Positions 1,506 to 42,963 are shown, counted from the stretch's first letter. The stretch: 42,963 nucleotides of DNA from an uncultured Candidatus Saccharibacteria bacterium (GCA_964468315.1 CAYXTA010000005.1:1-42963), one strand, 5' to 3'. Program-made: numbers and translations. Notes: a model not told the origin generated them from the sequence alone.

Positions 1506-2072
1506 TTAGTATTTACGTATGACTGCCTTCACGACTGCTGTGATCTGTAAATCATGTTTCGGGATTATCGGTTTAAAATTTTTATTGGCTGGTTCGAGCC
1601 AAACTTTGTCACCATTCTTTTTAAAATATTTCATAGTGAATTCTCCATCGACATGTGCGATGACAATATCACCATCTTTTGCTTTGTCAGTGCGTTCAAC
1701 GAGGACCATATCACCGTCTTTGATATGTGCGTCAATCATTGAGTCACCATCGACTTCAAGCATGTATGTATTTTCTTTTTTCTGTATTAAAAAATCTTCT
1801 ATGTTTACTGTATCAGTTAGTTCTGCTTCTACATCAGAAGGAAAACCAGCTTTCACAGAACCAAGAAGAGGTATCTCATCAAATGATGCATTTGGTATCA
1901 ATCTACCAAGATGATCTTTTGCTACTACGCCAGCTTCAAGCATCTTCTCCACAACGCGTGCTACAGCATTCTTTGATTTGAAAGAGAAGAGCTTCATCAT
2001 CTCTGTGTATGTAGGCATTCTCTTGTTTGAAGAATAGAACGAAGTTAATTTATTTTTGTAATCGTTTTGCAT
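1506..2072 (-). CDS. lexA: LexA repressor (wHTH + S24 peptidase)
   Basis: N-terminal PTYTEM..LF..KS..AV HTH, Ala-Gly cleavage site (GSVKAGFP), catalytic Ser (GDSM) and Lys (FTMK). Confidence 0.9.
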   Translation of the reverse strand: MQNDYKNKLTSFYSSNKRMPTYTEMMKLFSFKSKNAVARVVEKMLEAGVVAKDHLGRLIPNASFDEIPLLGSVKAGFPSDVEAELTDTVNIEDFLIQKKENTYMLEVDGDSMIDAHIKDGDMVLVERTDKAKDGDIVIAHVDGEFTMKYFKKNGDKVWLEPANKNFKPIIPKHDLQITAVVKAVIRKY

Positions 2073-15066: not shown

Positions 15067-15072
15067 GTATTT

Positions 15073-15124
15073 ACAAAGTGCCGAAAGGCTCCGAGAAAGC
15101 CCCCGTAAGGGGGCTTTCGATTTT
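15073..15124 (+). ncRNA. Candidate ~50-nt small RNA convergent on the MazF-like gene
   Basis: GCC-GAAA-GGC hairpin, then GAAAGCCCCC-GTAA-GGGGGCTTTC followed by gatttt; no ORF. Ends are estimated. Confidence 0.45.
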
Positions 15125-15517
15125 CTAAAGGAATTTCTTTAATTTCTCTTTTATTTCCTTTAACTGCTCGTCTGGTAATTCATATAACTTTCTTTTTAAT
15201 CTTTTAACACTGAGTAATTTTAATTGAGCCAAAATAGCTGAAACTTTATTATTATCTAAATCAGTAAAATTATAATAAAAGTCAAAATCTTTTTGTTTCG
15301 TAGATAATGGAACAATCCAAAACATATGATTGTTAAATTTCTTAATAATTAATATTGGGCGAGAAAAATTTTCACCACTACCATTTTGTTCATAACCAAT
15401 ATTTTTTCCTAAACTGCTCATCCACACTTCACCTTCTTTAGGAAAACGATCAGGTTTATTCTCTTCGAAATCAATTTTCTTTTTTAATTCATTCCAATTA
15501 TTAAAATCTGTTTCCAT
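15125..15517 (-). CDS. PemK/MazF-like toxin, no adjacent antitoxin gene
   Basis: GEVWM..LG.NIGYEQ, RPILIIKK, IVPLST. Confidence 0.8.
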   Translation of the reverse strand: METDFNNWNELKKKIDFEENKPDRFPKEGEVWMSSLGKNIGYEQNGSGENFSRPILIIKKFNNHMFWIVPLSTKQKDFDFYYNFTDLDNNKVSAILAQLKLLSVKRLKRKLYELPDEQLKEIKEKLKKFL

Positions 15518-28168: not shown

Positions 28169-28735
28169 TTATGAATTTTCTTTATTTAAAAAATGTCCTA
28201 CCAACACAAGGACTATTAGTACGAAGAATGCTGTCAGTGCAAGCATTGGAATTGAAATATATCCACCATATTCAGATACGAGTTGTTGATAACAAGAAAT
28301 ACCAGAAGCATCACAAGGTAGATTACCTGTTTCACCAAAATAATATCTAAAATTTTGATATACAGAAACAACAAAACCAACAGACAAAAGAGGAAGAACA
28401 TAACGAATTATTTTTTTATCTTTATTCCAAAAAGCTACACCAAAAATAAAAACCAATGGGTAAAGAAAAATTCTTTGATACCAACAAAGCATACATGGAG
28501 CGAAATTTATTACTTCTGAATATACGAGAGAGAAAAGTGAACCAGAAAGAGAAATTAGAAAACCAATGATTAGGAAATGCTTCTCTATGTATTGCAAAAA
28601 AGCATGTTTTTTATCAGTAAAGAAAAGTAAAAATAAAGCTACTATCGCAACTATTTGCAAAATAATAGCCCCTGCACCGAGAAACATATTTAGATAATGT
28701 ACTGTATCTGGATTCATATTACTCTGGAAGAACAC
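28169..28735 (-). CDS. Disulfide bond formation protein DsbB/BdbC family
   Basis: PCMLCWYQRIFLYPL plus a second Cys pair. Confidence 0.88.
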   Translation of the reverse strand: MFFQSNMNPDTVHYLNMFLGAGAIILQIVAIVALFLLFFTDKKHAFLQYIEKHFLIIGFLISLSGSLFSLVYSEVINFAPCMLCWYQRIFLYPLVFIFGVAFWNKDKKIIRYVLPLLSVGFVVSVYQNFRYYFGETGNLPCDASGISCYQQLVSEYGGYISIPMLALTAFFVLIVLVLVGHFLNKENS

Positions 28736-29111
28736 AAGAAGTTTTCTCTGCTAATTTTACTAGTGGTACTTCACCTGTTTCTTTTGAACCATCTGCGAAG
28801 ATCCATGTTGGGTAACTTTCAATTTTCTTTGCTATACATTCTGCAGTTTGAGAATTACCATCTGGAGTCGAACATTCTACATATGGAAGAAGTTTTACAG
28901 AAGATCCGAAAAGTTTCTTTTGAGCTTTACAATGAGGACACCAAAAAGCACCATAAAAAGTCGCACCCTTGTCTTTTAGACATTGAGCAAAACCATCGTA
29001 TTTATTTAAAGTTGATGGTGAATTAGCGGATTTTGAATCCATTACCACCATAGTAATACCTCCTAAAATGAGTAACCCTATAATTGAAAAAAATATTTTT
29101 ACATTTGTCAT
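28719..29111 (-). CDS. Membrane-anchored thioredoxin-fold protein
   Basis: YGAFWCPHC..QKKLFG, YVECS, YPTW; overlaps the dsbB start. Confidence 0.85.
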   Translation of the reverse strand: MTNVKIFFSIIGLLILGGITMVVMDSKSANSPSTLNKYDGFAQCLKDKGATFYGAFWCPHCKAQKKLFGSSVKLLPYVECSTPDGNSQTAECIAKKIESYPTWIFADGSKETGEVPLVKLAEKTSCVLPE

Positions 29112-29206: not shown

Positions 29207-30922
29207 TTAATTAACAATGAACTTACATCGCTGTAATGATTTGTCCGGTTCAATCGAGATAGCAATATAATAACCAGGTTTCAAAGAATTGAAATTTTCA
29301 ATAACTCTTCCTGATAAATCATAAATCGTTACTTCAGATTCATTTGTTGGTTTAGTTATAACCAGATTTTCTTGATTGTAATAAACTTTCAAAATTTGAA
29401 CTGGAACATCTAAATTTGATTCAGTAGCTGGTAAAGATTTCCTTACAGTTTCCTCAACCAAATTAGGGTCAGCAACAACACGATCAATAGCCGGAGTAAC
29501 AGGCGTTGGTACAGGTCCAAACACATGAGGTGTAGGAGGAGTGTATAGCTTAAATAACCATAATTCTGTTGTCGATTTAACAACACCATTAATAGTCACA
29601 GTGTGACCTACGCTCGTAACGTCTCCGTTTGCACTAGACTTTGTCTGACCAAAAACTACATAACCACCATCAGATGAAACAATAATACAAGTAGGAAGTT
29701 CAGCATCATTTCCACCGTAACATTTCTGCGCAGTAAGAACTCCATTTTTATTTACTTTTCCTACCCAGAAATCATTTGAAGTAGGATGGTAGTTACCACC
29801 TGCAACATTTGAATCATTTGAGTTTGTAATAGCATTAAAAACAAGACCACTATCAGGTGTAAGTGCCAATGAATAAATATTGTCATCTTTTGAACCACCA
29901 TATGGTTTTGCCCATATAACACTTCCTGAAGAAGTTATTTTGATAATCATACCATCATGAAGTCCACCTTTATATCCAGTAATACCACCTTTTGGATTTC
30001 CACAAACATAATAACCTCCTTCTAAGTTTGGTATTATACCCCAACCAAATTCTTGAGTCGTAGTTCCAAAAGATTTAGCCCAAGAAATTACATCATTTTT
30101 GGTCATTTTAACAGTAAAAATATCTCCACTGCCAACTGAGTTCGTAATATCTCCATTTGTTGAAGTTGTGTAACCATTTAATATGTAACCACTATCGCTA
30201 GTAGCAATAACACCTCTAAACTCATCAGTAAGAGAACCACCAATACATTTATATCCTATAAGGCTACCATTTTTACTATAATGAGCTACATAGCCATCTG
30301 ATTGACCTCCATGATACCCGGTAAGAGAAGTAGTGCTTGTTTGACCGCATACAATGTAAGATGAATCAAGTAATTGAGTAACAGATTGACCAGTAGCACA
30401 AGTTTCTGAGCTTGATCCAGGAAGACAAGTCTGCCAAATTATAGTTCCAGAAGAATCTGTTTTTACAATCCAAATATCATTACTACCATTGTAACCTGAC
30501 ACATCTCCATTATTCGATGTTGTTGTAACTGCGGAAAAAAAATATCCACCATCTTTTGTAACAATAATTGATTTACCATCATCATATCCTGTTCCACCAA
30601 GTAGTTTTGTCCACATAACATTACCTGTAGCATTATATTTTACAAGACCAACATCACTAGAAAGACTTGAACCAGATGCGTGATTTCCGCTAAAATCTCC
30701 ATTTTTTGAATTTATAGAACTAACAGCAATATAACCACCATCTGGTGTTTGTGCGAAACCTCCAGCAGCATCGTAATTGTCATTAGTAAATGGCCCACTA
30801 CAAGTATTACCACCTGAACTCTTATTCCATTGAAGATTAGGCATTTGTGCAAAAACTGTACTCGTTGTTCCATAAAGGAACGCACATAATAAAATGTGCA
30901 AAATAGATTTTTTTGTTTTCAT
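29207..30922 (-). CDS. Secreted repeat (beta-propeller-like) protein with T9SS-CTD-like end
   Basis: Signal peptide ending VFAQ; repeated W.K..GG...D....I..T.DGGY units; C-terminal IYDLSGR...L.PGYY...KF. Confidence 0.75.
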   Translation of the reverse strand: MKTKKSILHILLCAFLYGTTSTVFAQMPNLQWNKSSGGNTCSGPFTNDNYDAAGGFAQTPDGGYIAVSSINSKNGDFSGNHASGSSLSSDVGLVKYNATGNVMWTKLLGGTGYDDGKSIIVTKDGGYFFSAVTTTSNNGDVSGYNGSNDIWIVKTDSSGTIIWQTCLPGSSSETCATGQSVTQLLDSSYIVCGQTSTTSLTGYHGGQSDGYVAHYSKNGSLIGYKCIGGSLTDEFRGVIATSDSGYILNGYTTSTNGDITNSVGSGDIFTVKMTKNDVISWAKSFGTTTQEFGWGIIPNLEGGYYVCGNPKGGITGYKGGLHDGMIIKITSSGSVIWAKPYGGSKDDNIYSLALTPDSGLVFNAITNSNDSNVAGGNYHPTSNDFWVGKVNKNGVLTAQKCYGGNDAELPTCIIVSSDGGYVVFGQTKSSANGDVTSVGHTVTINGVVKSTTELWLFKLYTPPTPHVFGPVPTPVTPAIDRVVADPNLVEETVRKSLPATESNLDVPVQILKVYYNQENLVITKPTNESEVTIYDLSGRVIENFNSLKPGYYIAISIEPDKSLQRCKFIVN

Positions 30923-30996
30923 TGTTTTTTATTTTTTTATGTCAGAGAACATCCTCTTTCAAAAAGATAATAGCATATTTTAGAAATAAAAGCAAG

Positions 30997-33900
30997 TTAT
31001 AAATAGTTTAATATCTTTTTACTAATGGGTTTTGTACAATTAAGCAAATTAATTTTGCTACGAGTATATTGAGCTACTATTCCTGTTGTTTTTTTACCAT
31101 TAAATGGAGAAATGATATCTTTAAAATATTTTTGCTGAAAACGTTTTACTGCTTCAAAATCTTTTTTTTCATAAATACCATTCACAGCCAGCTTTTCTCC
31201 CTGAGAATCATTTAAAAAAGTTTCAAGTTTTTTAACATCATTAATATTATTTATCTTACCTAAAACGATACTTTTTTTTGTAGAAAAAATATTTGTACAA
31301 AGTGAAACATCTTGAATTTTTTCTACTGCAATTTCTTTTGCTTGAACAGGATAATAAGGACGCGACTTTCCATAAGAAGAACGATGAGAAGCTCCTGAAA
31401 CAGTTATTGGGGTTGTAATTGTAAAAGTTGTCACGCTTAAAAGATTACTTGTATTAGTAGCAGTATCAGTAACAATGATAGTACAATCACTATAAATTCC
31501 ATCAACGAGTGTATTAAAACTTATTGTATTATTTCCCACACTTGCTGAGGTTGTAACTGAAGAACAAGAACCTCCGTATGTTATAGTTCCTGCTTCATCT
31601 GTAGAAAAAACATAATCCGGTGTATGGTCCGTCGTTAGATTTGTAACAGGTGTAATTTCAGAAAGTGTTGGACTAGTAGTATCAACAACAAAAGTAGTAA
31701 CACTAAGTGGAGTACTTGCATTAAGTGCAGTATCAGTAACAGTAACAGTACAATTATTGTACGTTCCATCCGACAATGTATTAAACGTAATTGTATTACT
31801 ACCTACTGAAGCTGATGTTGTAGCTGAAGAACAAGAACCTCCATATGAAATATTTCCTGCTTCGTCTGTAGTAAATGTATAGTTTGGAGTACTATCATTT
31901 GTTGGAGTTGAGACTGGAGTAACTTCAGAAATAATTGGTGCAGTAATATCTGGTGCATAGGTTACAGTATTGTCCGTAGATGTCGCAGCAGTATTGTTGT
32001 TATTAGAAGGATCAGTTACTTTGTTTGCATCAAGAGAGGCAATAATAGTACCGCCTGACGTTGCAGTAACTGGGACAGTCCATGTAATATTATCTGAAGT
32101 TGTAGGAGTTCCCACTGTGGCAGTGCCTGTACCAGAAATTGTAATATCACCAGCTATAAATGTTGTTGGATCAATTGCTTCGCTAAATACTACAGTGAAA
32201 TTAATTGGGTTTGAGCCTGTTGGATCAGACTGTCCTACAGCTTGGTTGATAGTAGCAGTAGGCGCAGTTGTATCAGGTAAAGACACATCATAAATAGTTA
32301 TTCTATTATTATTTGTCACAAATAATTTAGTATTTGTAACATCATATGCCAAAGGTCCTGGTCCATTCATCCCCGCTTGTGTAACTGCTCCCGTACTTCC
32401 CGTAAAAGTCGTCTGTCCTAAGACATTTATTGCATTTTCTCCATCAGTGATGGAAGCGACGTCGTAGACGGTGACGCGGTTACTTGTTGATTGGGAAACA
32501 AACAATCTATTATTAGTAGCATCATAGACAATGTCTTGAGGAATATTCATTCCTCCTTGTGTAGTAGCTCCCGTACTTCCCGTAAAAGTCGTCTGTCCTA
32601 AGACATTTATTGCATTTTCTCCATCAGTGATGGAAGCGACGTCGTAGACGGTGACGCGGTTGGCGGAAGTTGCTTGGGCGACGAAAAGTCGGCTGTTGGT
32701 AGAATCATATGCAAGACCTTTTGGATTATTCATCCCCGCTTGTGTAACTGCTCCAGTACTTCCTGTAAAAGTTGTCTGTCCCAAGACATTGATTGCATTC
32801 TCTCCATCAGTGATGGAGGCGACGTCGTAGACGGTGACGCGGTTACTATTGGAAACAAAAAGTCGACTATTGGTGGAATCATAAGCAAGTGCTTGTGGGC
32901 TACTCATCCCCGATTGTGTTACGGCTGCACCACTTGCAGTAAAAGTATTCTGTCCCAAGACATTGATTGCATTTTCTCCATCAGTGATGGAGGCGACGTC
33001 GTAGACAGTGACACGGTTAGCTGCTGTTTGAGCAACAAAGAGTCTATTGTTTACAGAATCATATGCAAGACCGAAAATAGAACTTACGCCTGCTTGAGTT
33101 ACTGCTCCAGTATTTGAATTAAAATCTGTTTGACCTAAAACATTGTCAGGTGTCTTGTCTACAAGCTGATTGCTTGAATTAAGATTATAAACAAGAACGC
33201 GATTATTAGTAGAATCATTCACAAATAAACGGTGATTCGTAGAATCAATAATATTATTACCAACACCTGCACCACTCAGGCCGAGTAAACTCGGTGCATT
33301 ATTTGTCGCTGATTTTGTGTAATTTACTGTCGAGCCTGATAGATCGGAATATTGACCAATCAAATCTACCGCATTTTCTCCATCAGTGATGGAGGCGACG
33401 TCGTAGACGGTGACGCGGTGCGCTCCTGTTTGTGAAACAAATAAAAGACCATTTATATTGTCGTAAAGTAAACCAGTTGGTGTACTCATACCTCCCTGTG
33501 TCACCGCTGCAGTACTTCCCGTAAAAGTCGTCTGTCCTAAAACATTGATTGCATTCTCTCCATCAGTTATGGAAGCGACGTCGTAGACGGTGACACGATG
33601 ATTTCCTGACTGAGCAACAAAGAGTCTGTCATTAGTTGAATCATATGCAAGACCAGTAGGACTTTTCACTCCTGCCTGCGTTGTGGCTGCTGTATTTACC
33701 GTAAACGTCGTCTGTCCTAAAACATTGATTGCATTCTCTCCATCAGTTATGGAAGCGACGTCGTAGACGGTGACGCGGTTACCATTTGCAACAAATAACC
33801 TACTGTTAGCATTATCATATGCCATACCTTGTGGACCACCAGTAGCCATTCCTCCCTGCGTAACCGCTGCACTAGATCCCGTAAAAGTCGTCTGTCCTAA

Positions 33901-34614
33901 AACATTGATTGCATTTTCTCCATCAGTAATAGAGGCGACGTCGTAGACGGTGATGCGGTTTGAAGAAGATTGCGAAACAAAGAGTCTATTGTTTGTGGAG
34001 TCAAAAGCAAGACCGAAAATATTACCCATGCCTGCTTGAGTAACTGCTGAAGTAGATGTTGTAAACGTCGTCTGTCCCAAGACATTGATTGCATTCTCTC
34101 CATCAGTGATGGAGGCGACGTCGTAGACGGTGACGCGTCGAGCATTTGTATTTGCAACAAAAAGTCTATTGCCATTAGGATCATAAACAAGACTGGAAGG
34201 ACTAGACATACCTGCTTGAGTTATTGCTCCTGTAGTTGTAGAAAAAGTTGTTTGCCCTAAAACATTATCGGCTACTTTATCAACCAACTGATCACTTGAG
34301 TTTAAATTGTAAACAAGAACACGATTATTCGCAGAATCAGATACAAACAATCTGTGATGCACATGATCAATATCAGTACTAAAATTACCAGAGCCACTGA
34401 ATCCAAGTAAGTTTGGAGAATTATTTGAGCCTGACTTTGTATAAATTACGGTTGAACCTGCGGTGTCAGTATATTGTCCAATTAAGTCTGAAGCATTTTC
34501 TCCATCAGAAATTGCAGCAGACGTAGTTTGAGTAAAAGTAAAAAAAGCAACTACTAGAAAAGAATAGATAAGAAATGCCGATTTTTTATTTTTTTTATAA
34601 AAAAGTTTTTTCAT
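30997..34614 (-). CDS. Large surface protein: NHL repeats, Ig-like domains, C-terminal peptidoglycan-binding-like domain
   Basis: About 60-aa NHL-type repeats (GLAYD..N.RLFV....NRVTVYD), DTTAP Ig modules, AVKRFQ..Y...TG.V...TR tail. Likely start MKKLF at 34614. Confidence 0.85.
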   Translation of the reverse strand: MKKLFYKKNKKSAFLIYSFLVVAFFTFTQTTSAAISDGENASDLIGQYTDTAGSTVIYTKSGSNNSPNLLGFSGSGNFSTDIDHVHHRLFVSDSANNRVLVYNLNSSDQLVDKVADNVLGQTTFSTTTGAITQAGMSSPSSLVYDPNGNRLFVANTNARRVTVYDVASITDGENAINVLGQTTFTTSTSAVTQAGMGNIFGLAFDSTNNRLFVSQSSSNRITVYDVASITDGENAINVLGQTTFTGSSAAVTQGGMATGGPQGMAYDNANSRLFVANGNRVTVYDVASITDGENAINVLGQTTFTVNTAATTQAGVKSPTGLAYDSTNDRLFVAQSGNHRVTVYDVASITDGENAINVLGQTTFTGSTAAVTQGGMSTPTGLLYDNINGLLFVSQTGAHRVTVYDVASITDGENAVDLIGQYSDLSGSTVNYTKSATNNAPSLLGLSGAGVGNNIIDSTNHRLFVNDSTNNRVLVYNLNSSNQLVDKTPDNVLGQTDFNSNTGAVTQAGVSSIFGLAYDSVNNRLFVAQTAANRVTVYDVASITDGENAINVLGQNTFTASGAAVTQSGMSSPQALAYDSTNSRLFVSNSNRVTVYDVASITDGENAINVLGQTTFTGSTGAVTQAGMNNPKGLAYDSTNSRLFVAQATSANRVTVYDVASITDGENAINVLGQTTFTGSTGATTQGGMNIPQDIVYDATNNRLFVSQSTSNRVTVYDVASITDGENAINVLGQTTFTGSTGAVTQAGMNGPGPLAYDVTNTKLFVTNNNRITIYDVSLPDTTAPTATINQAVGQSDPTGSNPINFTVVFSEAIDPTTFIAGDITISGTGTATVGTPTTSDNITWTVPVTATSGGTIIASLDANKVTDPSNNNNTAATSTDNTVTYAPDITAPIISEVTPVSTPTNDSTPNYTFTTDEAGNISYGGSCSSATTSASVGSNTITFNTLSDGTYNNCTVTVTDTALNASTPLSVTTFVVDTTSPTLSEITPVTNLTTDHTPDYVFSTDEAGTITYGGSCSSVTTSASVGNNTISFNTLVDGIYSDCTIIVTDTATNTSNLLSVTTFTITTPITVSGASHRSSYGKSRPYYPVQAKEIAVEKIQDVSLCTNIFSTKKSIVLGKINNINDVKKLETFLNDSQGEKLAVNGIYEKKDFEAVKRFQQKYFKDIISPFNGKKTTGIVAQYTRSKINLLNCTKPISKKILNYL
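32387..34140. repeat. Intragenic coding repeats of about 180 bp (9 core copies)
   Basis: Core CCATCAGT(G/T/A)AT(G/A)GA(A/G)GCGACGTCGTAGAC(G/A)GTGA at 32441, 32621, 32804, 32978, 33380, 33560, 33740, 33920, 34100. Confidence 0.92.
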
Positions 34615-34663
34615 ATTAACGACGAATATTAATACATTATAACACAATAAACAGTACAAAAAA

Positions 34664-34689
34664 AACACCCTTACAATTGTAAGGGTGTT
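34664..34689 (-). terminator. Perfect 26-bp palindrome, likely a terminator
   Basis: AACACCCTTACAATTGTAAGGGTGTT, followed by a T-run on the minus strand. Confidence 0.75.
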
Positions 34690-34722
34690 AGTATAATTAC
34701 TTTTTAAATAATAAAAATTTAA

Positions 34723-35520
34723 CTATTTAAAGAGCTTATTTCTCTCGAGAATATTGCCTTCCTTGTCATAACTGACAAGGATATATATACCTGAACTGAG
34801 AGTATTCATGTCTACGACTTCCCGACCTTGGGTATCATAGAGGATCGTTTTGACGACTTGCTTGTCGTCAGTAAACTCGATTGCAATTGGTGGAAAAGTT
34901 TCATTATCACCATTATAATCGGTCTGACTGAGACGATAGTACGCAACACCGTGAAATGGATTATCATCAAAAAATGAGTAATTAAGTGTTTGGCTACTGT
35001 TTCCAGCGCCAGATACTTGACCAATTTCTTGGTAGTTGTATCCATCAATACTTTTTTCAATACTGAAATAGTTATTGTTGATTTCTGATGCTGTACTCCA
35101 AGTAATTTGCACTTTGTCTTTTGTTGGTTTGGCTTTGAAAGAAATTAATTCAATAGGCAAAGGCGGTGGCGGATCCATGAGTTTAACAATCCAAATATCA
35201 TTACTTCCAGCATTATGTTGAGCTGGATTACACCCAGGAACAGTAATATTAGAAAGAGTAGAAGTTTCAAAAATATAACCCTTGTCTCGCGTTTGAATAA
35301 TCCAAGGAATAGCTTCTGTGTTTGTTCCACCGTAACATTTTTGGTATTTAAGAACACCAGAACTGTCTAATTTTATTAACCAAACATCAGAGGAACCGCC
35401 ATTATAAGTAAAACCTCCATTTACCAAAAAATTTCCACCAGTCAAAGTGGAAGCAAAAACACTAAGTGGCATAATGCCAAATAAAATAAATAGAAATTTA
35501 ATAAAATAATTTTTACTCAT
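34723..35520 (-). CDS. Secreted protein: truncated propeller repeat + LPIEL..F Ig-like domain + T9SS-CTD-like end
   Basis: LPIELISFKA..ITWSTASEINNNYFSIEKSIDG..YYRLSQTDYNG; LYDTQGR..LSSGIYIL. Confidence 0.8.
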   Translation of the reverse strand: MSKNYFIKFLFILFGIMPLSVFASTLTGGNFLVNGGFTYNGGSSDVWLIKLDSSGVLKYQKCYGGTNTEAIPWIIQTRDKGYIFETSTLSNITVPGCNPAQHNAGSNDIWIVKLMDPPPPLPIELISFKAKPTKDKVQITWSTASEINNNYFSIEKSIDGYNYQEIGQVSGAGNSSQTLNYSFFDDNPFHGVAYYRLSQTDYNGDNETFPPIAIEFTDDKQVVKTILYDTQGREVVDMNTLSSGIYILVSYDKEGNILERNKLFK

Positions 35521-35617: not shown

Positions 35618-35691
35618 TGCCAGATCGTCTAATGGTAGGACACCTCCCTCTGGAGGAGGTTATCTTGGTTCGAGTCCAAGTCTGGCAGCCA
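35618..35691 (+). tRNA. tRNA-Gln (anticodon CTG), CCA encoded
   Basis: Acceptor TGCCAGA/TCTGGCA, D-arm GTC..GAC, anticodon stem CCTCC/GGAGG with loop CTCTGGA, T-arm CTTGG-TTCGAGT-CCAAG. Confidence 0.96.
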
Positions 35692-37191
35692 GCTTGTACA
35701 GTCCGCTAATTCTAGGACTAGATTAAATGGAGAAGCTATTGCAAACTCTAGCTTTTTTCCGTTTACAGTCGGGTTCTGAAGTAGAGAGTTCAAAAATGCT
35801 CTTTTTCCTGCAACATCAGAACTATTTTCAAAAATTGTTTTTGCTCTGCGTGCTACAGAAACAATCATAGCAACGGTAGTTTGATAATCGTAGTCTGCTT
35901 TTCTATGCTCGGACATTTCAATTTCTAGTAGCTGTATTTTATCAGTGTACTCTTGGTGCTTTTTGTCATAAGTATCCTTAGTAATACTCGTATCTAAAAA
36001 TGCTTCAAGTAATCTATTCTTTTTTGCTTCTAAGTTATCGTGGTCTGTGCGTATGCGATTTATCTGTGCCTTATGAAAAACTATTTCAGCTTCAGTATTC
36101 TTGCGTAGGTCATTTACAAGCTCGTTCTGTGCTTCCTCTGTAATGCTCTCAAATCGCTCTAAAACCTCGTACACGGGCTTCAAGAGGTCGTTCTCGTTGA
36201 TGTATATCCTCTTACAAATACGCTTTGCGTTAGTGCAAGAATAATAGATAAAAATAAGTCCACTTTTCTTAGTCTTGGTTTCAGCTGTCATTGCACAACC
36301 GCAGTTTTGACACTTAAGCAAACCCTTGAATATAAAATCTTTAGAATGTGCCTTATAGGGCAAATTGGTGCGTTTAAGGCGTACCTGTTTGCATTTATCA
36401 AACAATTCTTTGCTTATAAGACGAGGGTATTTATGTGCATACGCACCGTATTTTTCTGATACAGCAATACCACAAAAGAAGCTATCCTTTAAGATATTTT
36501 CAATACTACTTCTTCCAAGCTCGTTCCCATTTAGAGTGCGTAGCCCAAGCTCTGTGATTTTTATTCGTATCGTTTCTAGTGAGTGTTCGTCTGTTGCGTA
36601 AAGCTCAAACATTTTTGCAACTAAATGTCCTCGTTCAGGGTCAATTATTATATCTTTGCGTAATCTTCTTTCTGTATCTAAAGAAACATTAAGATAACCC
36701 AAGCGTACTCCGCCAGTCCATTCGCCATTTCTTCGTTTGTTTTCAAATGCTCGTCTTACATTGTCGCCAATAGCATCGGAATAGTATTTTGCCAAACCCA
36801 AGCTCATACCAAATTGGAACTTCTCAACAGCAGACATTTGAGTATTTATAATCTGTCCTTCTGATACAAAGTGAAGTTCAATCTTATCAGCAATCGCAAG
36901 TTCGTAGAGCCGAGCAACTCTTTTATCAAAAACACTTCTTGAAAGTCGGTCTACTTTATCAAAGCAAACAGATATTTTTTCTTTTTTAATTATATCCTCA
37001 ACATACTCAAGCAATTTATCAAACTCATCTCGTTTATCTTTATACGCACTTTCATCAAAACTGAAAGATTTTATTATCTCAAAAGATTTCTTTTTACAGT
37101 AACTATTGATACGCTCAATTTGAGCAGGCAACGAGTTTCCAGCTTCTTTTTGTTCTTCAGTTGATACTCGTGATACATTTATTGCTTTCAT
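35629..37191 (-). CDS. Large serine recombinase (resolvase + recombinase + zinc ribbon + coiled coil)
   Basis: SRVSTEEQ catalytic motif, DKVDRLSR, LG.LN, CQNCG..YYSC; the C-terminus overlaps the tRNA antisense. Confidence 0.92.
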   Translation of the reverse strand: MKAINVSRVSTEEQKEAGNSLPAQIERINSYCKKKSFEIIKSFSFDESAYKDKRDEFDKLLEYVEDIIKKEKISVCFDKVDRLSRSVFDKRVARLYELAIADKIELHFVSEGQIINTQMSAVEKFQFGMSLGLAKYYSDAIGDNVRRAFENKRRNGEWTGGVRLGYLNVSLDTERRLRKDIIIDPERGHLVAKMFELYATDEHSLETIRIKITELGLRTLNGNELGRSSIENILKDSFFCGIAVSEKYGAYAHKYPRLISKELFDKCKQVRLKRTNLPYKAHSKDFIFKGLLKCQNCGCAMTAETKTKKSGLIFIYYSCTNAKRICKRIYINENDLLKPVYEVLERFESITEEAQNELVNDLRKNTEAEIVFHKAQINRIRTDHDNLEAKKNRLLEAFLDTSITKDTYDKKHQEYTDKIQLLEIEMSEHRKADYDYQTTVAMIVSVARRAKTIFENSSDVAGKRAFLNSLLQNPTVNGKKLEFAIASPFNLVLELADCTSWLPDLDSNQDNLLQREVSYH

Positions 37192-37193
37192 AA

Positions 37194-38366
37194 TTAAAAT
37201 ACTTTTTCTAATTTCTTTTTTGAAATTGAAGTTTTTTTGAGTTTATTTATTTGTGTTTTTTCCATTAAAAATAAGTACTCTTTATGAGCATCATTTTCGT
37301 TGGAAGCGTTGAGCCATTCATTCGTCCAACGCATACTTGCCATTATGTTTTTCTTATAGTCAATTTCTATTATTTTAAGAACTTTCCCCGTTTCATTTAA
37401 GATTGTTTCAAGCTCTTTTTTTGTTGCCCTCCCTCCAGAGCTGTAAGAAAGCATAACGTATTTTGCATTAGTTTTTTGTATGAGTGTTCTAATCGCTTCC
37501 ATAGCGATAAAATTACCATTATCATTTTTTCTGAACTCTTCAAAAATTGAGCCAGCGATTAAATCTCTACTATCTTCTCGTCTGTTTACCTTACCAAAAA
37601 GTTTTGGTTTATCATTTTTAATAACAGTTGTCCAAATGTGGTAATAAGAAGCATATCTAACACGACTAGGGGGCATTTTCTCATTGTTTGAACCATAAGG
37701 GGGGTCAAAATAAGCTAGGTCAAAAGAGTGTTTCTCTACCACCTTGTAAATATCATCTTTGATTATCTTATGTTTACCAGTTGTCTTTTTTAGATTTGGC
37801 AATTTAAGAAAAAGGTCATTATAGGAACGAGCAGACCACTTGGAAAGATAAGAAACGAAGTGTCCAAGGGTACTGTCTACAGCATCAAGTGCGAACAATA
37901 AACTTGTTAGCACAACTGCTTTGTCTGTGTCATTTAATTTTAATTCATCAATTCTATCTCTTATCGCATCTAGCTTTCTTGTATTTTTCTTTTGAAAAGG
38001 CATCTTTACTTCCATTTCCTCATCACCTCCGTAGTGCTTTGTAAACCAACCATCGTAACCCTTAAGAGCGTTCAACTCATCAAGTATTGTTTGGTAGTAT
38101 TCTCTATCTTTATCGTGCAAGAGAAAACATTTTGCACAAACTTCAGACCAATCTGCTATATCACTAGAGGTAACATCGTAACCAGCTTGAGCAAGTGCTT
38201 GACTTACTCTAGTTGAACCACTAAAACCATCCAAAACGGTTTTAATTTCTAGGTCTTTTATAGTTTCTAATATGTAAGGAATTATTTTGAGCTTAGAGCC
38301 AGCATATTTAATTCCTTGTGTTTTTATATCAGAAAAATCTTTTTGATTAAATAATGTTTTTGACAT
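37194..38366 (-). CDS. N6-adenine DNA methyltransferase (D12/FokI-like class)
   Basis: KYAGSK, LDGFSGS (motif I), YFDPPY (motif IV), LSYS. Confidence 0.88.
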   Translation of the reverse strand: MSKTLFNQKDFSDIKTQGIKYAGSKLKIIPYILETIKDLEIKTVLDGFSGSTRVSQALAQAGYDVTSSDIADWSEVCAKCFLLHDKDREYYQTILDELNALKGYDGWFTKHYGGDEEMEVKMPFQKKNTRKLDAIRDRIDELKLNDTDKAVVLTSLLFALDAVDSTLGHFVSYLSKWSARSYNDLFLKLPNLKKTTGKHKIIKDDIYKVVEKHSFDLAYFDPPYGSNNEKMPPSRVRYASYYHIWTTVIKNDKPKLFGKVNRREDSRDLIAGSIFEEFRKNDNGNFIAMEAIRTLIQKTNAKYVMLSYSSGGRATKKELETILNETGKVLKIIEIDYKKNIMASMRWTNEWLNASNENDAHKEYLFLMEKTQINKLKKTSISKKKLEKVF

Positions 38367-38368
38367 AA

Positions 38369-39220
38369 TTATAATTTTTTCAATCTATCTATATCTTTTT
38401 GTAGAATGATATTTGCTTCCTTGTGGCTTTCTTCAGTGCTATTTAATGCCAAACTAAACAACTTAACTAGCGTGTGATTATGAGAGTAGTCAATCCACCC
38501 ATTTGTAAGACTATCAAAGTAATTTAGTGCGTTTTTTGTATTTGTCCAAAGACCTCTCTGAAGTGCATTTGCTGAAGCACCTCCGTAACGTACTTCACAT
38601 ATATATTCACCATTACTATCTAAAAACATAAAGATTGGATGTTGTCTTGTTTTTCCTGTCTTCTTACCACTATGACTTTCTCCATTACCAATATATTTAA
38701 TTCTAGCAGTTTCATTCATTGCTTTTTCGTGGTCAAAAACCATAATGTTACATTGTTTCTTTTTTTCATTATAAATCAGAGGCATTACATTTATATTATT
38801 GAAATCTGCAAATGCAGGAGACGCAAATATATCTTTTATTTTCTTTTTATCCGTAATGTCCTTGCCTTGTATTTCAAGGAATGGAAACATTTTTTGTTCA
38901 CTATCTGTTGAAAGTTGTAAGGGACCGTCTCCGTATGCTTTTAAGCTTACAGGGAATTGAGATTTTGTTACTTCATTGATAATCATAATATCCTCCTCTC
39001 TTTCTTTTGCTCTGAAAAGGTCTTTACCGACGTGTATACTTCTGAAGTCATACATAAACTGATTGATAAACTCAGCAATTCCTATTTCTGCTAAATCCCC
39101 GTGAGTTTTGTTACCAATAAGTCTCATAGTAAATATGTTAGACAAGGTATTTATAACCAAATGCCTGTGCTTACTTACTAGTAACTTAAATCTATCTTTG
39201 AAATCTTTATATGGGTTCAT
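38369..39220 (-). CDS. Putative type II restriction endonuclease
   Basis: 2 nt upstream of the MTase; GDLAE...EDI...SLKAY resembles a PD-(D/E)xK variant. Confidence 0.6.
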   Translation of the reverse strand: MNPYKDFKDRFKLLVSKHRHLVINTLSNIFTMRLIGNKTHGDLAEIGIAEFINQFMYDFRSIHVGKDLFRAKEREEDIMIINEVTKSQFPVSLKAYGDGPLQLSTDSEQKMFPFLEIQGKDITDKKKIKDIFASPAFADFNNINVMPLIYNEKKKQCNIMVFDHEKAMNETARIKYIGNGESHSGKKTGKTRQHPIFMFLDSNGEYICEVRYGGASANALQRGLWTNTKNALNYFDSLTNGWIDYSHNHTLVKLFSLALNSTEESHKEANIILQKDIDRLKKL

Positions 39221-39240
39221 AATTTTAATTTATATAATAA

Positions 39241-39420
39241 TTATTTTGTACTTACTTTTTTAAGAAAAGTATTAAACTCTACTTTATCAATCCTAAAATC
39301 ACGACCGATTTTGTGTGCTTTCAAACGACCTGCTTTTATGTAGCGGTAAATGGTCATAATGTTTACCTCTAGTAATTCAGCTAAGTCTTCTGCTTTATAA
39401 AACTCTTTTTCTTTAATCAT
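39241..39420 (-). CDS. Excisionase-like helix-turn-helix protein, 59 aa (absent from the ORF track)
   Basis: MIKEKEFYKAEDLAELLEVNIMTIYRYIKAGRLKAHKIGRDFRIDK. Confidence 0.88.
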   Translation of the reverse strand: MIKEKEFYKAEDLAELLEVNIMTIYRYIKAGRLKAHKIGRDFRIDKVEFNTFLKKVSTK

Positions 39421-39443
39421 AAATGTTTTGTATTTACCTAATA

Positions 39444-39472
39444 ATTATACTTTACTCCGCTTTACATAGCAA
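39444..39472 (-). promoter_or_regulatory. Promoter for the HTH-REase-MTase-recombinase run
   Basis: Minus strand TTGCTA-17 nt-TATAAT. Confidence 0.65.
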
Positions 39473-39632
39473 CTTTATCGTCAGTGAACAACTTTTTCCT
39501 TCGTATTCCTTGTTTTATGCGTTCTGATAATTGTCTTCTGTATTCAAGATTTAGCTCTCGTGTCATTGCTTCACGAAAGAAGTTTCTTTTGAGCTTTCTT
39601 TTAGCATTTTGTTTTTCTTTATTGTTTTTCAT
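39462..39632 (-). CDS. 56-aa basic small protein (absent from the ORF track)
   Basis: MKNNKEKQNAKRKLKKKLLREAMTRELNLEYRRQLSERIKQGIRRKKLFTDDKVAM; start overlaps the Rep 3' end. Confidence 0.6.
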   Translation of the reverse strand: MKNNKEKQNAKRKLKRNFFREAMTRELNLEYRRQLSERIKQGIRRKKLFTDDKVAM

Positions 39633-40734
39633 AAGTTTTAATTTTATATGGTTTATAATCTTCCAATGCTTTATCTATCTGCATTACCCAATCTCGGAGA
39701 TTATTTTTGGTTATAAGCTTGCCAGCGTGTTGCATATCTTTGGCTATACGATACCAAGTCATAACATTACACTTTTTAGATATGATTGAGCGTAATTCTC
39801 GCATTCCATTTTCGTCCCTACCAAGCATATACAATCCTAAAAGGTATATAGCTCGGTTTGGTTTGATTTTGCTGTCAGCTAAATAAATGGTTCTTATGGC
39901 ATCTTTTACACTTAACGAGATTGAAAACAGTCCAAGATTGCGTTCTTTGATGAGTTTTTGCCAATAATCTTTTACCACCTTTTGAGACATTTCTTTATTG
40001 AAAACATCTTTGAAAAGGGGGTTCTTCTGATAGCCCAATTTTTCAAGTACGCTGTTCATTTTTTGTTTTTGGATTAAGCGGATTTCAAAGCGTATAACTT
40101 CAAACATTTCTTTCTTTTTAATTTCACCAAACAAACTTCGTTGATAAAGTGTTTGGTCTTTATCTATTGCTCGCTTCTTATCCTTACCCAAGTCAGCTAC
40201 TTTGTCGTAAATAACAAGCTCGTGCGAGGCGGTATGAGCGTACAAACTTTGTCCGTCATTGATAAATCTTGCCTTTGCAAAATCAAAACTCTTTCGTAGG
40301 TCTATCTTACCAATTTCGCTAATAATGTGGCTTGCGGTATATCCGCCTTCAAGTTTTATGTTCTTTGAAAAATGAACAGAGCTTACTGAAGCATTTTCAA
40401 GAACTAACCTTGTAACTATTACGCCCATAGTTTTAAGTCTTTCCTGTAAGGTTTCAATTACTTTAGGAAAATCTTTTTCTTCAAGTTCGTCTAGGTTATT
40501 TAGGTATAACAACTTAGGGACTGAAAACTCCATACGAACATTCGCATCTTGAGAAAACCGCCGTTTATATCCAGTCAGTCTGGGAAAATAATTTCCTGTA
40601 TCTTTTTCCGCTTTATTCGGATTACGAACAAACTTCGCATAGTCGTCTGTCTTAGAATACAACTCCCAACTCACTACTCCCGAAAGGTAAATCATTTTTT
40701 CTTTTGGTATGAGTAAACATATTGTATCAATCAT
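39619..40734 (-). CDS. Putative rolling-circle replication initiator (Rep_trans / phage CRI-like)
   Basis: MIDTI, MEFSVPKLLYLNN, ELVIYDK, IRFEIRL. Confidence 0.65.
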   Translation of the reverse strand: MIDTICLLIPKEKMIYLSGVVSWELYSKTDDYAKFVRNPNKAEKDTGNYFPRLTGYKRRFSQDANVRMEFSVPKLLYLNNLDELEEKDFPKVIETLQERLKTMGVIVTRLVLENASVSSVHFSKNIKLEGGYTASHIISEIGKIDLRKSFDFAKARFINDGQSLYAHTASHELVIYDKVADLGKDKKRAIDKDQTLYQRSLFGEIKKKEMFEVIRFEIRLIQKQKMNSVLEKLGYQKNPLFKDVFNKEMSQKVVKDYWQKLIKERNLGLFSISLSVKDAIRTIYLADSKIKPNRAIYLLGLYMLGRDENGMRELRSIISKKCNVMTWYRIAKDMQHAGKLITKNNLRDWVMQIDKALEDYKPYKIKTYEKQ

Positions 40735-40894
40735 AATTTTCTGTCTTTTTAATCTGATAAATATCTAACGCAGGATTTTGTTTTTTGTCTTCCTGAATAA
40801 GCCATCCAAAAGCACCGACCAACCTCGCCCTTTCATCAAAAGAGAGGTCTTTCATTCTGAACGGCTTTTTCAGTTGTTCATTAACTTCCTGCAT
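40727..40894 (-). CDS. 55-aa small protein coupled to Rep (absent from the ORF track)
   Basis: MQEVNEQLKKPFRMKDLSFDERARLVGAFGWLIQEDKKQNPALDIYQIKKTENYD; its stop overlaps the Rep ATG by 8 nt. Confidence 0.6.
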   Translation of the reverse strand: MQEVNEQLKKPFRMKDLSFDERARLVGAFGWLIQEDKKQNPALDIYQIKKTENYD

Positions 40895-40899
40895 AGAAA

Positions 40900-40923
40900 A
40901 CCCCGAAGGGTTATCTTCAGGGT
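40900..40923 (-). terminator. Hairpin between the 422-aa gene and the Rep operon
   Basis: Minus strand ACCCUGAAG-auaacc-CUUCGGGGU then UUUCU; an alternative AACCC-UUCG-GGGUU stem overlaps it. Confidence 0.5.
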
Positions 40924-40947
40924 ATTAGATACGGTACTTAAGTTTGC

Positions 40948-42216
40948 TTAATTTTTATTTATATATTTTGTGTTCAATCTTGCAGAATGTTTGGTTAGTT
41001 CAAATATATTTTCTACTTCGGGGATTGATAACTTTACCTTTCTATTGAATTGATAGATTGCATTTTTTACAGCAGTTTCGTTTACATCATTACCACCCAG
41101 TAACTCGCTTATGTCATACAAACTCCATTCTGTATAAGTGTTTTTTGGGTTCTGAAAGATAACTCTTAGAACTTCTTTTTGTACTTGCCCTTGAACTTTT
41201 ACCTTGTATTCTTTACCTTCTTGGTCAGATAAAGTCATCGTTCCTGTTTGGGAAGAAAAACTTAAGTTCAGCTTAAGTCCTTTGGTTTTTTCTGTTTCAA
41301 CTGCATCTTTTTTTACTTGCCCAAGTAGAGAAGGAAGTGTTATCGGGGTCTGATGGAACTTAACATTCCAAAGCTCTGTATCATTCCAATTTCTAACTTT
41401 TATTCTTGTTTCTCTTTCTAGGTAAGACATTATTTTAATCACTTCAAAACCCTGCTCTAATAAAGCAGAAAATGGTATGTTTACGCACCCATCAATTTCA
41501 GGTAATGCCTTTATGTATCCAAAAAAGTTTTCAAGTTGTTTTGAAAAATAGAACCTCTTACTTTTATAGATGGGTTTCTTATCAATAAAATCGTCTTGTG
41601 AGAAAGAAAAAAGTAAATCATCAATGTCTTTATTAAGTTGGTCTACTCCTTTTTGGTCAAAATCTATTTCAATTTCAATAAAAGGTGCGGAGATAGAGGA
41701 AATGTATTGTATATATCTATGAAAATCGTTTTCAGTAAAATTAACTCCATTTGTATTTATATTACCGAAAGTAGCTTTTTTATTCGTTCTGAAGTACGCT
41801 TCTCGTTGCCTCTCCTGTAGCTTATCAAGGTCTGATATTTCTTTTATAATACCAGTGTAATACATAACAGTATCTTCCGTGCATTCTTTATTATTTAATG
41901 CTTCCCGTATAACTTTTTCTCGTAACGCATCTAAATCAGTAACGCTTATCCTTTTGATTTTACCTAACTTCAAATCTCTAGTAATTTGTACCACCTGACG
42001 AAGAACTAAATCCTCAACAGAGCCATAGTCATTGGTATCTTGCACTTCTTCTGTTATTTCCTCAATCTTCCAATACTCACCTTTAAGAAATTGCTCTAAT
42101 GTAAGTATATTTTGCCCTCTATAATATCCCTCAAGTAGTATATGAAGTGTAAGTAGGTTTATATCGCTATTGAAGTAATCAAAAGGTTTTAAGTAAAAGT
42201 CTTCATCTTCTTCCAT
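40948..42216 (-). CDS. Hypothetical protein with a C-terminal winged-helix-like domain
   Basis: C-terminal QKEVLRVIFQ..WSLYDISELL..AVKNAIYQFNRKVK; N-terminal part not recognised. Confidence 0.65.
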   Translation of the reverse strand: MEEDEDFYLKPFDYFNSDINLLTLHILLEGYYRGQNILTLEQFLKGEYWKIEEITEEVQDTNDYGSVEDLVLRQVVQITRDLKLGKIKRISVTDLDALREKVIREALNNKECTEDTVMYYTGIIKEISDLDKLQERQREAYFRTNKKATFGNINTNGVNFTENDFHRYIQYISSISAPFIEIEIDFDQKGVDQLNKDIDDLLFSFSQDDFIDKKPIYKSKRFYFSKQLENFFGYIKALPEIDGCVNIPFSALLEQGFEVIKIMSYLERETRIKVRNWNDTELWNVKFHQTPITLPSLLGQVKKDAVETEKTKGLKLNLSFSSQTGTMTLSDQEGKEYKVKVQGQVQKEVLRVIFQNPKNTYTEWSLYDISELLGGNDVNETAVKNAIYQFNRKVKLSIPEVENIFELTKHSARLNTKYINKN

Positions 42217-42269
42217 TTATATAGTTTACTTTAGTTTACAATACTTTTCAAGATTGTTATTATAATCTT

Positions 42270-42827
42270 ATGCCCAAAAAGCAAAAAACGATTGAAATAA
42301 AGTATGAGGAAATGGAGCAATATGATACCTCTTGGGACGATGAAGTAATGGCAAAAAAGGAAGAACGATATTCTTCACTCATAGGTTCATTCTTAATATG
42401 GTTCAGTAATCTTGAACATAGCTTAGATATAGAGTTGGCTAATATTATCAACGAGCGTGCACACGATGAGGGCTATATAATAATCAAAGATTTAGAAATG
42501 TTTGAAAAGATTGAGCTTTTTTACAATCTTGCATTTCCTAGAATTAACTTTTCAGATAAGAAGAAGACACAGAAATTAAAACAATTAAATAAAATCAGAA
42601 AAGAACTAGAAGATTTAAGTATTATAAGGAATAAGATAGCACACGCAAAGTGGAATACTTTAGACAAAGATGGATATGTAAGAGTAGATACTAAAACTAA
42701 TAAAGAAAATGGGCTTATCAAGTTTAGAAAGTTCAAGATTACACCAATAATAATGAAGCAAGGTGTTAGACAAATTGAAGGGCTAACTGAAAGACTTTCT
42801 ATATTTAGAGAGAACATATTTCGGTAG
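42270..42827 (+). CDS. HEPN-domain protein
   Basis: Helical protein with F..LE motif and RNKIAH (R-X4-H). Confidence 0.65.
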   Translation: MPKKQKTIEIKYEEMEQYDTSWDDEVMAKKEERYSSLIGSFLIWFSNLEHSLDIELANIINERAHDEGYIIIKDLEMFEKIELFYNLAFPRINFSDKKKTQKLKQLNKIRKELEDLSIIRNKIAHAKWNTLDKDGYVRVDTKTNKENGLIKFRKFKITPIIMKQGVRQIEGLTERLSIFRENIFR

Positions 42828-42871
42828 GAAAAAGGTTTAATATACCACTAAACTGCAATTCACTTTTAATA

Positions 42872-42926
42872 CTAGCCCAGTTTGCGGTTCTGAACCTGTC
42901 CACTACTGCCAGCAAACTTGAGCTAG
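42872..42926. other. Long imperfect stem-loop in non-coding DNA
   Basis: Minus strand CTAGCTCAAGTTTGC...GCAAACTGGGCTAG: 14 bp with one bulge and G-U pairs. Confidence 0.6.
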
Positions 42927-42963
42927 CACGAGATGCTTATAAATTGAGCTTTCGAATTAGCAA

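Follow-up and report, generated by a model that had tools for sequence, protein, structure and literature searches.

Reduced type IX secretion C-terminal domains on probable Sec-exported propeller proteins of Bacteroidota ancestry in a Candidatus Nomurabacteria surface-protein island

Why would a monoderm-type bacterium of the candidate phyla radiation (CPR) encode surface proteins that end like type IX secretion system (T9SS) cargo? The question is raised by a contig of 42,963 nt deposited for an uncultured Candidatus Saccharibacteria bacterium (GCA_964468315.1 CAYXTA010000005.1:1-42963), the whole of which we call the window, and by two of its open reading frames (ORFs) on the minus strand, p571 (571 aa; 29207..30922, including the stop codon) and p265 (265 aa; 34723..35520), whose short tails resemble the C-terminal domains (CTDs) of T9SS type A cargo. 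For most CPR bacteria, to our knowledge, neither the host nor the surface biology is known. We found no dedicated report of T9SS CTDs in CPR/Patescibacteria in the literature, and in NCBI annotation at least one CPR protein of this kind already bears a T9SS sorting-domain label. The answer that we regard as probable is that p571 and p265 are Sec-exported propeller proteins of Bacteroidota ancestry, in which the CTD is kept as a reduced β-sandwich module and not as a T9SS signal.

The p571 protein ends in ...VTIYDLSGRVIENFNSLKPGYYIAISIEPDKSLQRCKFIVN and p265 in ...ILYDTQGREVVDMNTLSSGIYILVSYDKEGNILERNKLFK. Both tails retain the D..G turn and the G(I/Y)Y strand, and their last strand still contains a Lys; PNP reads YNQ in p571 and is deleted in p265, and an alignment gap of ~12 aa falls between the D..G turn and the G.Y strand. 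Neither protein reaches the curated cut-offs for a T9SS type A CTD (23 bits for TIGR04183, 27 bits for PF18962): TIGR04183 aligns aa 519-570 of p571 with positions 11-71 of its 72 (E 0.0025, 17.7 bits), PF18962 aligns aa 224-257 of p265 with positions 36-69 of its 75 (E 0.041, 14.6 bits), and PF18962 has no match in p571 nor TIGR04183 in p265. The p571 orthologue P0002 passes with TIGR04183 (25.4 bits, profile positions 2-72) and fails with PF18962 (21.1 bits). When aligned by hhalign with 82 reference CTDs, the tails of p571 and P0002 gave a probability of 96% (E 3.4e-9, 61 columns) and those of p265 and the related copy L63a a probability of 87% (E 3.9e-6, 33 columns), both alignments reaching the last residues of the window tails. 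BLAST alignments with Bacteroidota-type homologues likewise continue through the CTDs of those homologues into the p571 and p265 tails. A custom CTD hidden Markov model (HMM), built from 82 reference homologue tails, scored p571 lower than TIGR04183 did. Judged from these alignments, homology of both tails to bona fide CTDs at the extreme C-terminus appears solid despite the sub-threshold scores, and the shortened CTD-like ends noticed in the sequence-only reading of this DNA are borne out.

The canonical CTD is a seven-strand, 3+4 immunoglobulin (Ig)-like β-sandwich described as essential, and its C-terminal motif and β3-β4 loop are relevant to T9SS function (PMC11285876). In AlphaFold2 (AF2) predictions neither window tail forms the complete sandwich. 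The reduced CTD of p571 (aa 509-571; 29210..29398, minus strand) is modeled with five strands (aa 512-516, 519-523, 530-535, 550-557 and 563-570) at a predicted local distance difference test score (pLDDT) of 79-90, and the 47-aa remnant of p265 (aa 219-265; 34726..34866, minus strand) with three, lying within aa 224-264 and equivalent to β3, β6 and β7 in type A CTDs. The p571 tail has lost ~12 aa of the β4-β5 region and kept the G.Y strand as well as the K-containing strand at its C-terminus; because P0002 still has the β4-β5 segment, the deletion presumably occurred within the window's own lineage. The tails of p265 and of two paralogues in the genome L063 additionally lack ~21 aa of the N-terminal PNP region containing β1-β2, with BLAST placing losses of ~21 aa and ~11 aa in p265 relative to P0153 and P0148. 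Across the CPR copies the CTD scores thus form a series, from 49-51 bits in P0119, a copy from another Paceibacteria lineage, through 25.4 in P0002, 17.7 in p571 and 14.6 in p265 to none in the L063 paralogues, and in all five CPR copies the reading frame stays open up to a C-terminus that aligns with the end of the CTD.

The remainder of p571 is laid out on the minus strand as a predicted Sec-type signal peptide (aa 1-26; 30845..30922), read from the sequence as MKTKKSILHILLCAFLYGTTSTVFA before cleavage and then Q, followed by a β-propeller of ~8 blades (aa 27-460; 29543..30844) and a Pro-rich, disordered linker (aa 461-508; 29399..29542; pLDDT <50 at aa 465-497 and 501-505). The signal peptide is modeled by AF2 as a helix at aa 3-18 and is 81% identical in P0002. 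Both p571 and p265 begin with a basic n-region, a hydrophobic core and an A-x-A-like site, with an N-terminal helix in the AF2 models, and both are accordingly predicted to carry an N-terminal Sec signal peptide. The W.K..GG and T.DGGY repeats that first drew attention to these proteins are indeed present in p571, together with D.W.VK, and correspond in the AF2 model (mean pLDDT 84.4) to ~8 four-stranded blades, with propeller pLDDT mostly >90. The linker is 47% identical to that of P0002, with indels.

Homologues of both proteins are numerous, with 1766 found for p571 in a database of 5.8 billion proteins and 1207 for p265, most of them carrying PF18962; a C-terminal CTD scoring at least 25 bits with the custom HMM was found in 74 of 118 homologues in the p571 set and in 91 of 119 in the p265 set. 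The affinity to Bacteroidota T9SS cargo proposed from the sequence is confirmed by these sets of more than 1,000 proteins each, which are mostly type A CTD proteins and whose named members are Bacteroidota (Flavobacterium, Flavobacteriales, Saprospiraceae, Chryseobacterium, Bacteroidales, Fulvivirga and Fluviicola) apart from one labelled Patescibacteria. Family profiles match solved T9SS CTDs (8GLK_D, 8GLJ_D, 7PZJ, 5JVK, 8H97, 5UYT, 8QB1), p571 scores 461.6 bits and p265 77.5 bits with the A3 family profile, and non-CPR propeller-family members match p571 with E down to 1e-126 and share invariant W/G/D columns. By these sequence comparisons, p571 and p265 are shown as true homologues of the T9SS type A cargo family, tails included, with p571 homologous over its full-length propeller to the Bacteroidota-type SBBP/delta-60-like family.

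The smaller protein, p265, appears to be a truncated paralogue consisting of a signal peptide, ~1.5 blades, a fibronectin type III (FN3)/Ig-like domain and a short tail, because its aa 45-265 match the last 220 aa of the 604-aa P0025 with 58% identity, and aa 1-435 of P0025 align with p571. It also aligns with the related copy L63b, and in its AF2 model the pLDDT rises from 42-63 over aa 1-115 to 86-98 over aa 120-265. The Ig domain reported for this protein, an LPIEL..F...TWSTASE.NN.YF β-sandwich, was located at aa 116-218 (34867..35175, minus strand); its columns are nearly invariant across an alignment of 92 homologues, its AF2 pLDDT is 86-98, and it is 40-63% identical to the counterpart directly preceding full CTDs in Bacteroidota-type proteins. 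The domain has no match in Pfam-A, NCBIfam or the sequences of the PDB, and Foldseek searches with the p265 model returned generic FN3/Ig matches only, none specific to T9SS CTDs. Its consensus, LPxEL..F...W.T..E.NN.YF.IE.S.DG...GAGNS...Y.F.D..P..G..YYRL.Q.D.DG, is very common just before T9SS CTDs.

These cargo-like proteins are encoded by a genome that the sequence-only reading had rightly placed in the CPR: the RNase J of the window is 67-83% identical to that of 55 GTDB genomes, all 55 of them Patescibacteria and mostly Candidatus Nomurabacteria, with the top matches (83% identity) to Candidatus Nomurabacteria metagenome-assembled genomes (MAGs) that are GTDB species representatives. On this evidence the window is a genuine Candidatus Nomurabacteria (Patescibacteria/CPR) contig. 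We propose that an ancestor of a Nomurabacteria sublineage acquired a T9SS-cargo gene long ago from a donor in the Bacteroidota or, more broadly, the Fibrobacteres–Chlorobi–Bacteroidetes (FCB) superphylum, and that the gene was then duplicated, recombined and partly truncated. In a cell without an outer membrane or a T9SS, the N-terminal Sec signal peptide alone would export the protein, and the former secretion tag would persist as a small β-sandwich acting as a structural cap, a spacer, or a binding or retention domain. Situated behind a ligand-binding propeller, such a tail module would probably serve adhesion at the cell surface. We infer that recognition by a T9SS in cis is impossible without the machinery, which is itself confined to the FCB superphylum (PMC11205867).

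Whether the tails are still maintained is the point on which the best-surviving alternative turns. It holds that they are neutral, decaying relics and that p265 is a pseudogene fragment, persisting only pending deletion, and several observations fit it: scores among the CPR copies drop from 50 bits to undetectable, canonical strands have been removed by deletions, the blade remnant of p265 is poorly folded in AF2, and the tail evolves faster than the propeller, with 46% against 73% identity and a nonsynonymous divergence (dN) of 0.49 against 0.20 between p571 and P0002. For this pair the ratio of nonsynonymous to synonymous divergence (dN/dS) is 0.21 in the propeller and 0.48 in the linker, and in the CTD dN is 0.49 with dS saturated. 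Relics would not be expected, however, to look as constrained as these tails do. Between p571 and a natural allele, the tail has 12 synonymous and 7 conservative nonsynonymous codon changes, giving dN 0.058, dS 0.47 and dN/dS 0.12 over the 57 codons of this short comparison; RNase J gave a dN/dS of 0.12. Between p265 and L63b, dN/dS is 0.25 in the tail, level with the Ig domain (0.24) and the blade remnant (0.25). In addition, the frame is open to the CTD-aligned C-terminus in every CPR copy and AF2 is confident in the tails (pLDDT 79-94). Because dN/dS lies at 0.12-0.25, we read the tails as retained and not rotting; they evolve faster than the propeller yet appear constrained, trimmed and then retained under purifying selection, and their neutral decay is unlikely. 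Of the earlier suggestion of a decaying vestigial CTD, the vestigial part stands on the score gradient and the deletions, whereas the decay does not fit the dN/dS values.

The alleles of p571 also record recombination. For 3198 nt an allele on contig L060 (GCA_020050275.1) shows no difference from the window; beyond that tract 31 positions differ, the divergence beginning exactly at p571 codon 515 and running into the neighbouring thioredoxin-like gene trx (29207-29380, and downstream to 28923). From the sequences, this boundary is an apparent homologous-recombination breakpoint at the start of the CTD. Fast evolution specific to the tail was considered, as all seven amino-acid differences between p571 and the allele P0001 fall there, and was rejected, since synonymous changes start at the same place and continue into trx. 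In L063 (GCA_040384165.1), where two tandem 604-aa paralogues lie beside trx, the last 145 codons of the two copies (9089-9526 and 11037-11474) have no nucleotide differences and the sequence downstream is unrelated, which indicates either gene conversion of an Ig-plus-tail module or assembly collapse. The L063 island also contains, at 1130-7036, a tail-spike-like protein of 1968 aa with nine LVIVD repeats, a β-propeller and a Peptidase_S74 (endosialidase-chaperone) domain.

A second alternative places the acquisition in the recent past, with the genes captured from a present-day Bacteroidota host or neighbour and so able to identify the host. The family is overwhelmingly Bacteroidota-type T9SS cargo, Bacteroidota are enriched among donors of horizontally transferred genes to Patescibacteria (PMC12455944), a younger-looking transfer with an intact CTD exists elsewhere in Paceibacteria, and the GC content at third codon positions (GC3) of p265 is slightly raised, at 0.271. 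The codon usage of p571 by contrast matches the host (GC3 0.157, in a host range of 0.12-0.25), and in the propeller columns this protein shares 73% identity with P0002, 40% with L63a and no more than ~41% with anything else, so that ~41% is the best non-CPR identity in the 5.8-billion-protein database. Against many non-CPR homologues the identities are flat at 35-41%, with no donor lineage prominent. Diverged copies also occupy the same locus in three Nomurabacteria species: P0002, a 65%-identical orthologue of p571, has the same synteny in SRR26992859 (L001), whose RNase J is ~80% identical, and the L063 paralogues adjoin a trx and a DsbB gene that are 91% and 89% identical to those of the window. 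In a bootstrapped neighbour-joining tree of the propeller copies, p571, P0002 and L63a group in 100% of replicates, in 78% with L63b added and in 0% with P0119. Because the best non-CPR identity is ~41%, GC3 is host-like and the Nomurabacteria copies cluster, we interpret p571 and p265 as old, domesticated acquisitions and consider recent capture quite improbable; the earlier idea of gene capture as a clue to the host keeps its Bacteroidota/T9SS ancestry and loses its recency and its power to name a host. The family itself appears confined to a small Nomurabacteria sublineage, within which it was seemingly duplicated, truncated and recombined.

The transfer elsewhere in Paceibacteria concerns P0119, a 619-aa protein annotated as 'T9SS type A sorting domain-containing protein' on the Paceibacteria MAG contig JBDRFV010000029.1 (GCA_043818335.1), whose CTD is intact (50.9 and 49.1 bits). 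Its identity to some homologues is ~61%, and P0011, the one of these that was examined, comes from a diderm contig on which LptF/G and several genes with CTDs are found. The P0119 contig itself encodes a DEAD-box helicase 70-75% identical to Patescibacteria, Paceibacterota and Parcubacteria proteins, and an NHL plus PG_binding_1 surface protein. These features imply a second, independent and younger transfer into another Paceibacteria lineage. P0119 never groups with the Nomurabacteria copies. Its transfer suggests that gene flow from Bacteroidota-type donors to the CPR is recurrent, in line with the enrichment of Bacteroidota among donors to Patescibacteria (PMC12455944).

Could the tails instead still be read by a T9SS, that of another cell? 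CPR bacteria are commonly epibionts. On this premise, the tails would be functional ligands for the T9SS shuttle or attachment proteins (PorV/PorU/PorZ) of a Bacteroidota host, or would be recognised by the host's T9SS, so as to tether the epibiont or hijack attachment. The tails do appear to be under purifying selection, and the strands that they keep are the C-terminal-most ones (G.Y and the final, K-containing strand) along with the β3 D..G turn, in line with the parts relevant to T9SS function (PMC11285876). What is missing is nonetheless hard to reconcile with recognition: scores are under the curated thresholds, the essential seven-strand sandwich is incomplete, even the CTDs of two Bacteroidota genera, Porphyromonas and Tannerella, cannot replace one another (PMC11285876), and the homologues single out no donor or host lineage. 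Since PNP and β4-β5 are lost and CTDs are species-specific (PMC11285876), recognition in trans by a host's T9SS machinery is unlikely. We give very little credence to functional ligands of this kind, and equally little to the related proposal that the trimmed tails are an adaptation that docks the Nomurabacteria epibiont on PorV/PorU-type proteins of its host, the cargo-recognition surface serving as a receptor. Were docking true, the host phylum could be predicted from sequence by way of the CTD-like tails in CPR genomes.

It is highly improbable that the tails are degenerate propeller blades whose D..G and G.Y pattern mimics a CTD by chance or convergence. The CTD profile does give weak (<5 bit) matches to true propeller blades in P0119, p571 and L63a, and for this reason short motif resemblance alone is insufficient evidence for a CTD; the window tails, however, lie at the extreme C-terminus after a disordered linker or an Ig domain, the P0002 tail matches TIGR04183 end to end and above its cut-off, the hhalign E-value is 3.4e-9, and Bacteroidota homologues align to the tails through bona fide CTDs.

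Nor is the locus a product of assembly. Two independent Logan contigs (ERR4405439 and SRR10398024) carry the exact p571 gene within the same CPR flanks, the first with 0 mismatches to the window over 13.2 kb, and the neighbours common to these contigs are trx, DsbB, HI0933-like, MscL, DoxX, MFS, RNase J, SBP, SecG and PIF1. A Bacteroidota fragment misjoined to or binned with CPR sequence has close to no chance of being correct: the repeat-rich ORF p1223, between p571 and p265, does break contigs of other assemblies and marks the region as hard to assemble, yet two other assemblies have an identical p571-trx-DsbB-...-RNase J junction, the p265/p1223 junction is recovered separately on a third, short contig (L061), synteny is kept in L001 and L063, and GC and GC3 are host-like. 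Because the junctions recur in independent assemblies, with synteny in related species and host-like GC3, chimeric assembly is effectively refuted by the sequences, and the contiguity with CPR flanks that the sequence-only reading listed for checking holds in three independent assemblies and two syntenic related species.

Several points weigh against reading p571 and p265 as anciently acquired, Sec-exported proteins with repurposed tails. Besides the shortness of the allele comparison, dS is near saturation in the between-species comparisons, and long branches in the neighbour-joining tree make long-branch attraction possible for the Nomurabacteria grouping. Most homologues have no taxon label, so that the donor and the direction of transfer rest on the T9SS-specific tag and a named minority. 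L063, closest to the window by its flanks, holds only 40%-identical paralogues, and the more distant L001 holds the 65% orthologue; the history of the locus must therefore include loss, replacement or further transfer. Despite its low dN/dS, p265 may be non-functional, as its ~1.5 blades are not folded confidently by AF2. No T9SS or outer-membrane gene was found among the ORFs of the 43-kb window, a count that covers the window and not the genome, and a structural or retention role for the tails is something that we only infer.

The two genes lie in a variable neighbourhood. On its left, the thioredoxin-like gene trx and DsbB (28169..29111, minus strand; with thioredoxin and DsbB matches) form a conserved flank that anchors the locus in related Nomurabacteria, the pair being present in most of 55 related loci. 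On its right, the region ends at a tRNA-Gln(CTG) gene (35618..35691, plus strand; identified by ARAGORN). None of the 55 related loci sharing the trx-DsbB-RNase J neighbourhood has a member of the propeller family or a CTD. In related genomes the same position holds other surface proteins or merely two small genes before tRNA-Gln, as in L009, where the distance from trx to tRNA-Gln is 1.3 kb with two small genes between; the interval from trx-DsbB to tRNA-Gln therefore reads as a variable surface-protein island. A scan of genome contigs with p571 patterns gave 39 pattern matches and no relatives, the species of the window being absent from the GTDB representatives, and scans of metagenome contigs with alignments A4 (patterns in the signal peptide) and A5 (propeller core) also returned no relatives. 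The thioredoxin-like protein is membrane-anchored with a CPHC motif, and its gene and DsbB follow p571 directly downstream on the same strand; nine cysteines are present in mature p571. Export of p571 and disulfide formation by trx/DsbB may be linked, yet the trx-DsbB pair also occurs in relatives without propeller genes.

Between p571 and p265 lies p1223 (1223 aa; 30997..34668, minus strand), which matches Pfam NHL (62 bits) and Arylesterase (65 bits) and contains Ig-like domains, with PG_binding_1 at 16.7 bits on its C-terminal fragment; the C-terminus of its L001 orthologue is 52% identical and matches PG_binding_1 at 38.6 bits. It carries tandem repeats of 174-180 nt at 32365-33069 and 33487-34266 (71-81% matches), encoding 'VTVYDVASITDGENAINVLGQTTF' NHL-type units, with a local GC of 43% against 33% for the window, and it interrupts contigs in three other assemblies. 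No T9SS-like tail is present in p1223, and a PDB sequence search with its C-terminus found nothing significant. By its sequence, p1223 looks like an NHL-type β-propeller repeat protein resembling a monoderm wall-associated surface protein.

The tRNA-Gln gene also appears to be where an integrated element is attached. It is overlapped by the last 21 codons of a gene for a large serine integrase (35629..37191; phrog_95, 250 bits), which is followed by a D12-class adenine methyltransferase (37194..38366) with 82.5% identity to a gene in the Nomurabacteria MAG fen_1327 (L010), beyond which come four ORFs with no family matches. GC3 across 35618-42963 is 0.26-0.32, higher than the host's, and the independent contig L061 stops within the tRNA at ~35646. 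These observations suggest a population polymorphic for an element integrated at tRNA-Gln that runs beyond the window edge. A search to the right of tRNA-Gln within the window for att-type direct repeats found only short, chance-level repeats, and the element probably extends past the window end. The remaining ORFs of the window are housekeeping, stress and toxin-antitoxin genes usual for small genomes. Among them, the stretch 12578-15517 encodes a 676-aa Schlafen-group-3-like helicase fused to a C-terminal S24 (LexA-like) peptidase, with genes for a MazG-like protein and a PemK/MazF toxin beside it, and looks like a defence or stress-response cluster; a stand-alone S24 peptidase is encoded at 1506..2072.

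Comparison with known systems places the window proteins close to Bacteroidota T9SS type A cargo (Flavobacterium, Saprospiraceae, Fulvivirga) in domain order, with a signal peptide, an ~8-blade propeller bearing W.K..GG/T.DGGY repeats, an optional LPxEL FN3/Ig domain and a C-terminal β-sandwich, at identities of 33-41% for p571 and 40-63% for the p265 Ig domain. They differ in belonging to a monoderm-type CPR host from outside the FCB superphylum and in having tails that score below the cut-offs, lack PNP and the β4-β5 hairpin (and in p265 also β1-β2) and cannot act as a T9SS signal for the cell that makes them. P0119 is alike in its propeller family, its CPR genome and its neighbouring NHL plus PG_binding_1 surface protein, and unlike in its intact CTD, its ~61% identity to the diderm-contig homologue P0011 and its failure to group with the Nomurabacteria copies. 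Relative to solved CTDs (F. johnsoniae 8GLJ/8GLK, mirolase 8QB1 and the RgpB/PorZ type), the window tails retain the β3 turn, G.Y and the C-terminal strand, with five predicted strands in p571 and three in p265 where the canonical fold has seven. In Foldseek searches with the whole of p571 the propeller dominates, and the closest solved propeller is CylK, the cyanobacterial Friedel-Crafts alkylating enzyme (PDB 7FH6/7RON; profile E 1.2e-40; TM 0.60 over ~460 columns at 21-22% identity). CylK works in the cytoplasm as a biosynthetic enzyme, forms its active site together with an N-terminal domain and has neither signal peptide nor CTD; p571 is likened to it by propeller fold and sequence only and is not assigned to the CylK-like alkylases. 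Similarity to the LipL53-family SBBP lipoproteins (NF047494; E 4.4e-10, 38.8 bits) is at the level of repeats, and with a score far under the 400-bit cut-off and no lipobox in p571 we take it as repeat resemblance and not membership.

As a clue to the host the locus is weak, as it indicates Bacteroidota/FCB ancestry with no identifiable donor, and in this respect it is a modest evolutionary curiosity. Its practical lesson is that a 'T9SS sorting domain' label assigned automatically in a CPR MAG neither flags contamination nor gives evidence of a T9SS, and that motif resemblance between CTDs and propeller blades can mislead. For the organisms themselves, these data imply that Paceibacteria took up, at least twice, cargo genes of a secretion system that they cannot possess, and that after long residence the secretion tag was trimmed rather than discarded and appears still to be under purifying selection. 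The natural series that results, from a 50-bit CTD through 25, 18 and 15 bits to undetectable, could separate the parts of the T9SS signal needed for secretion only from those needed for folding.

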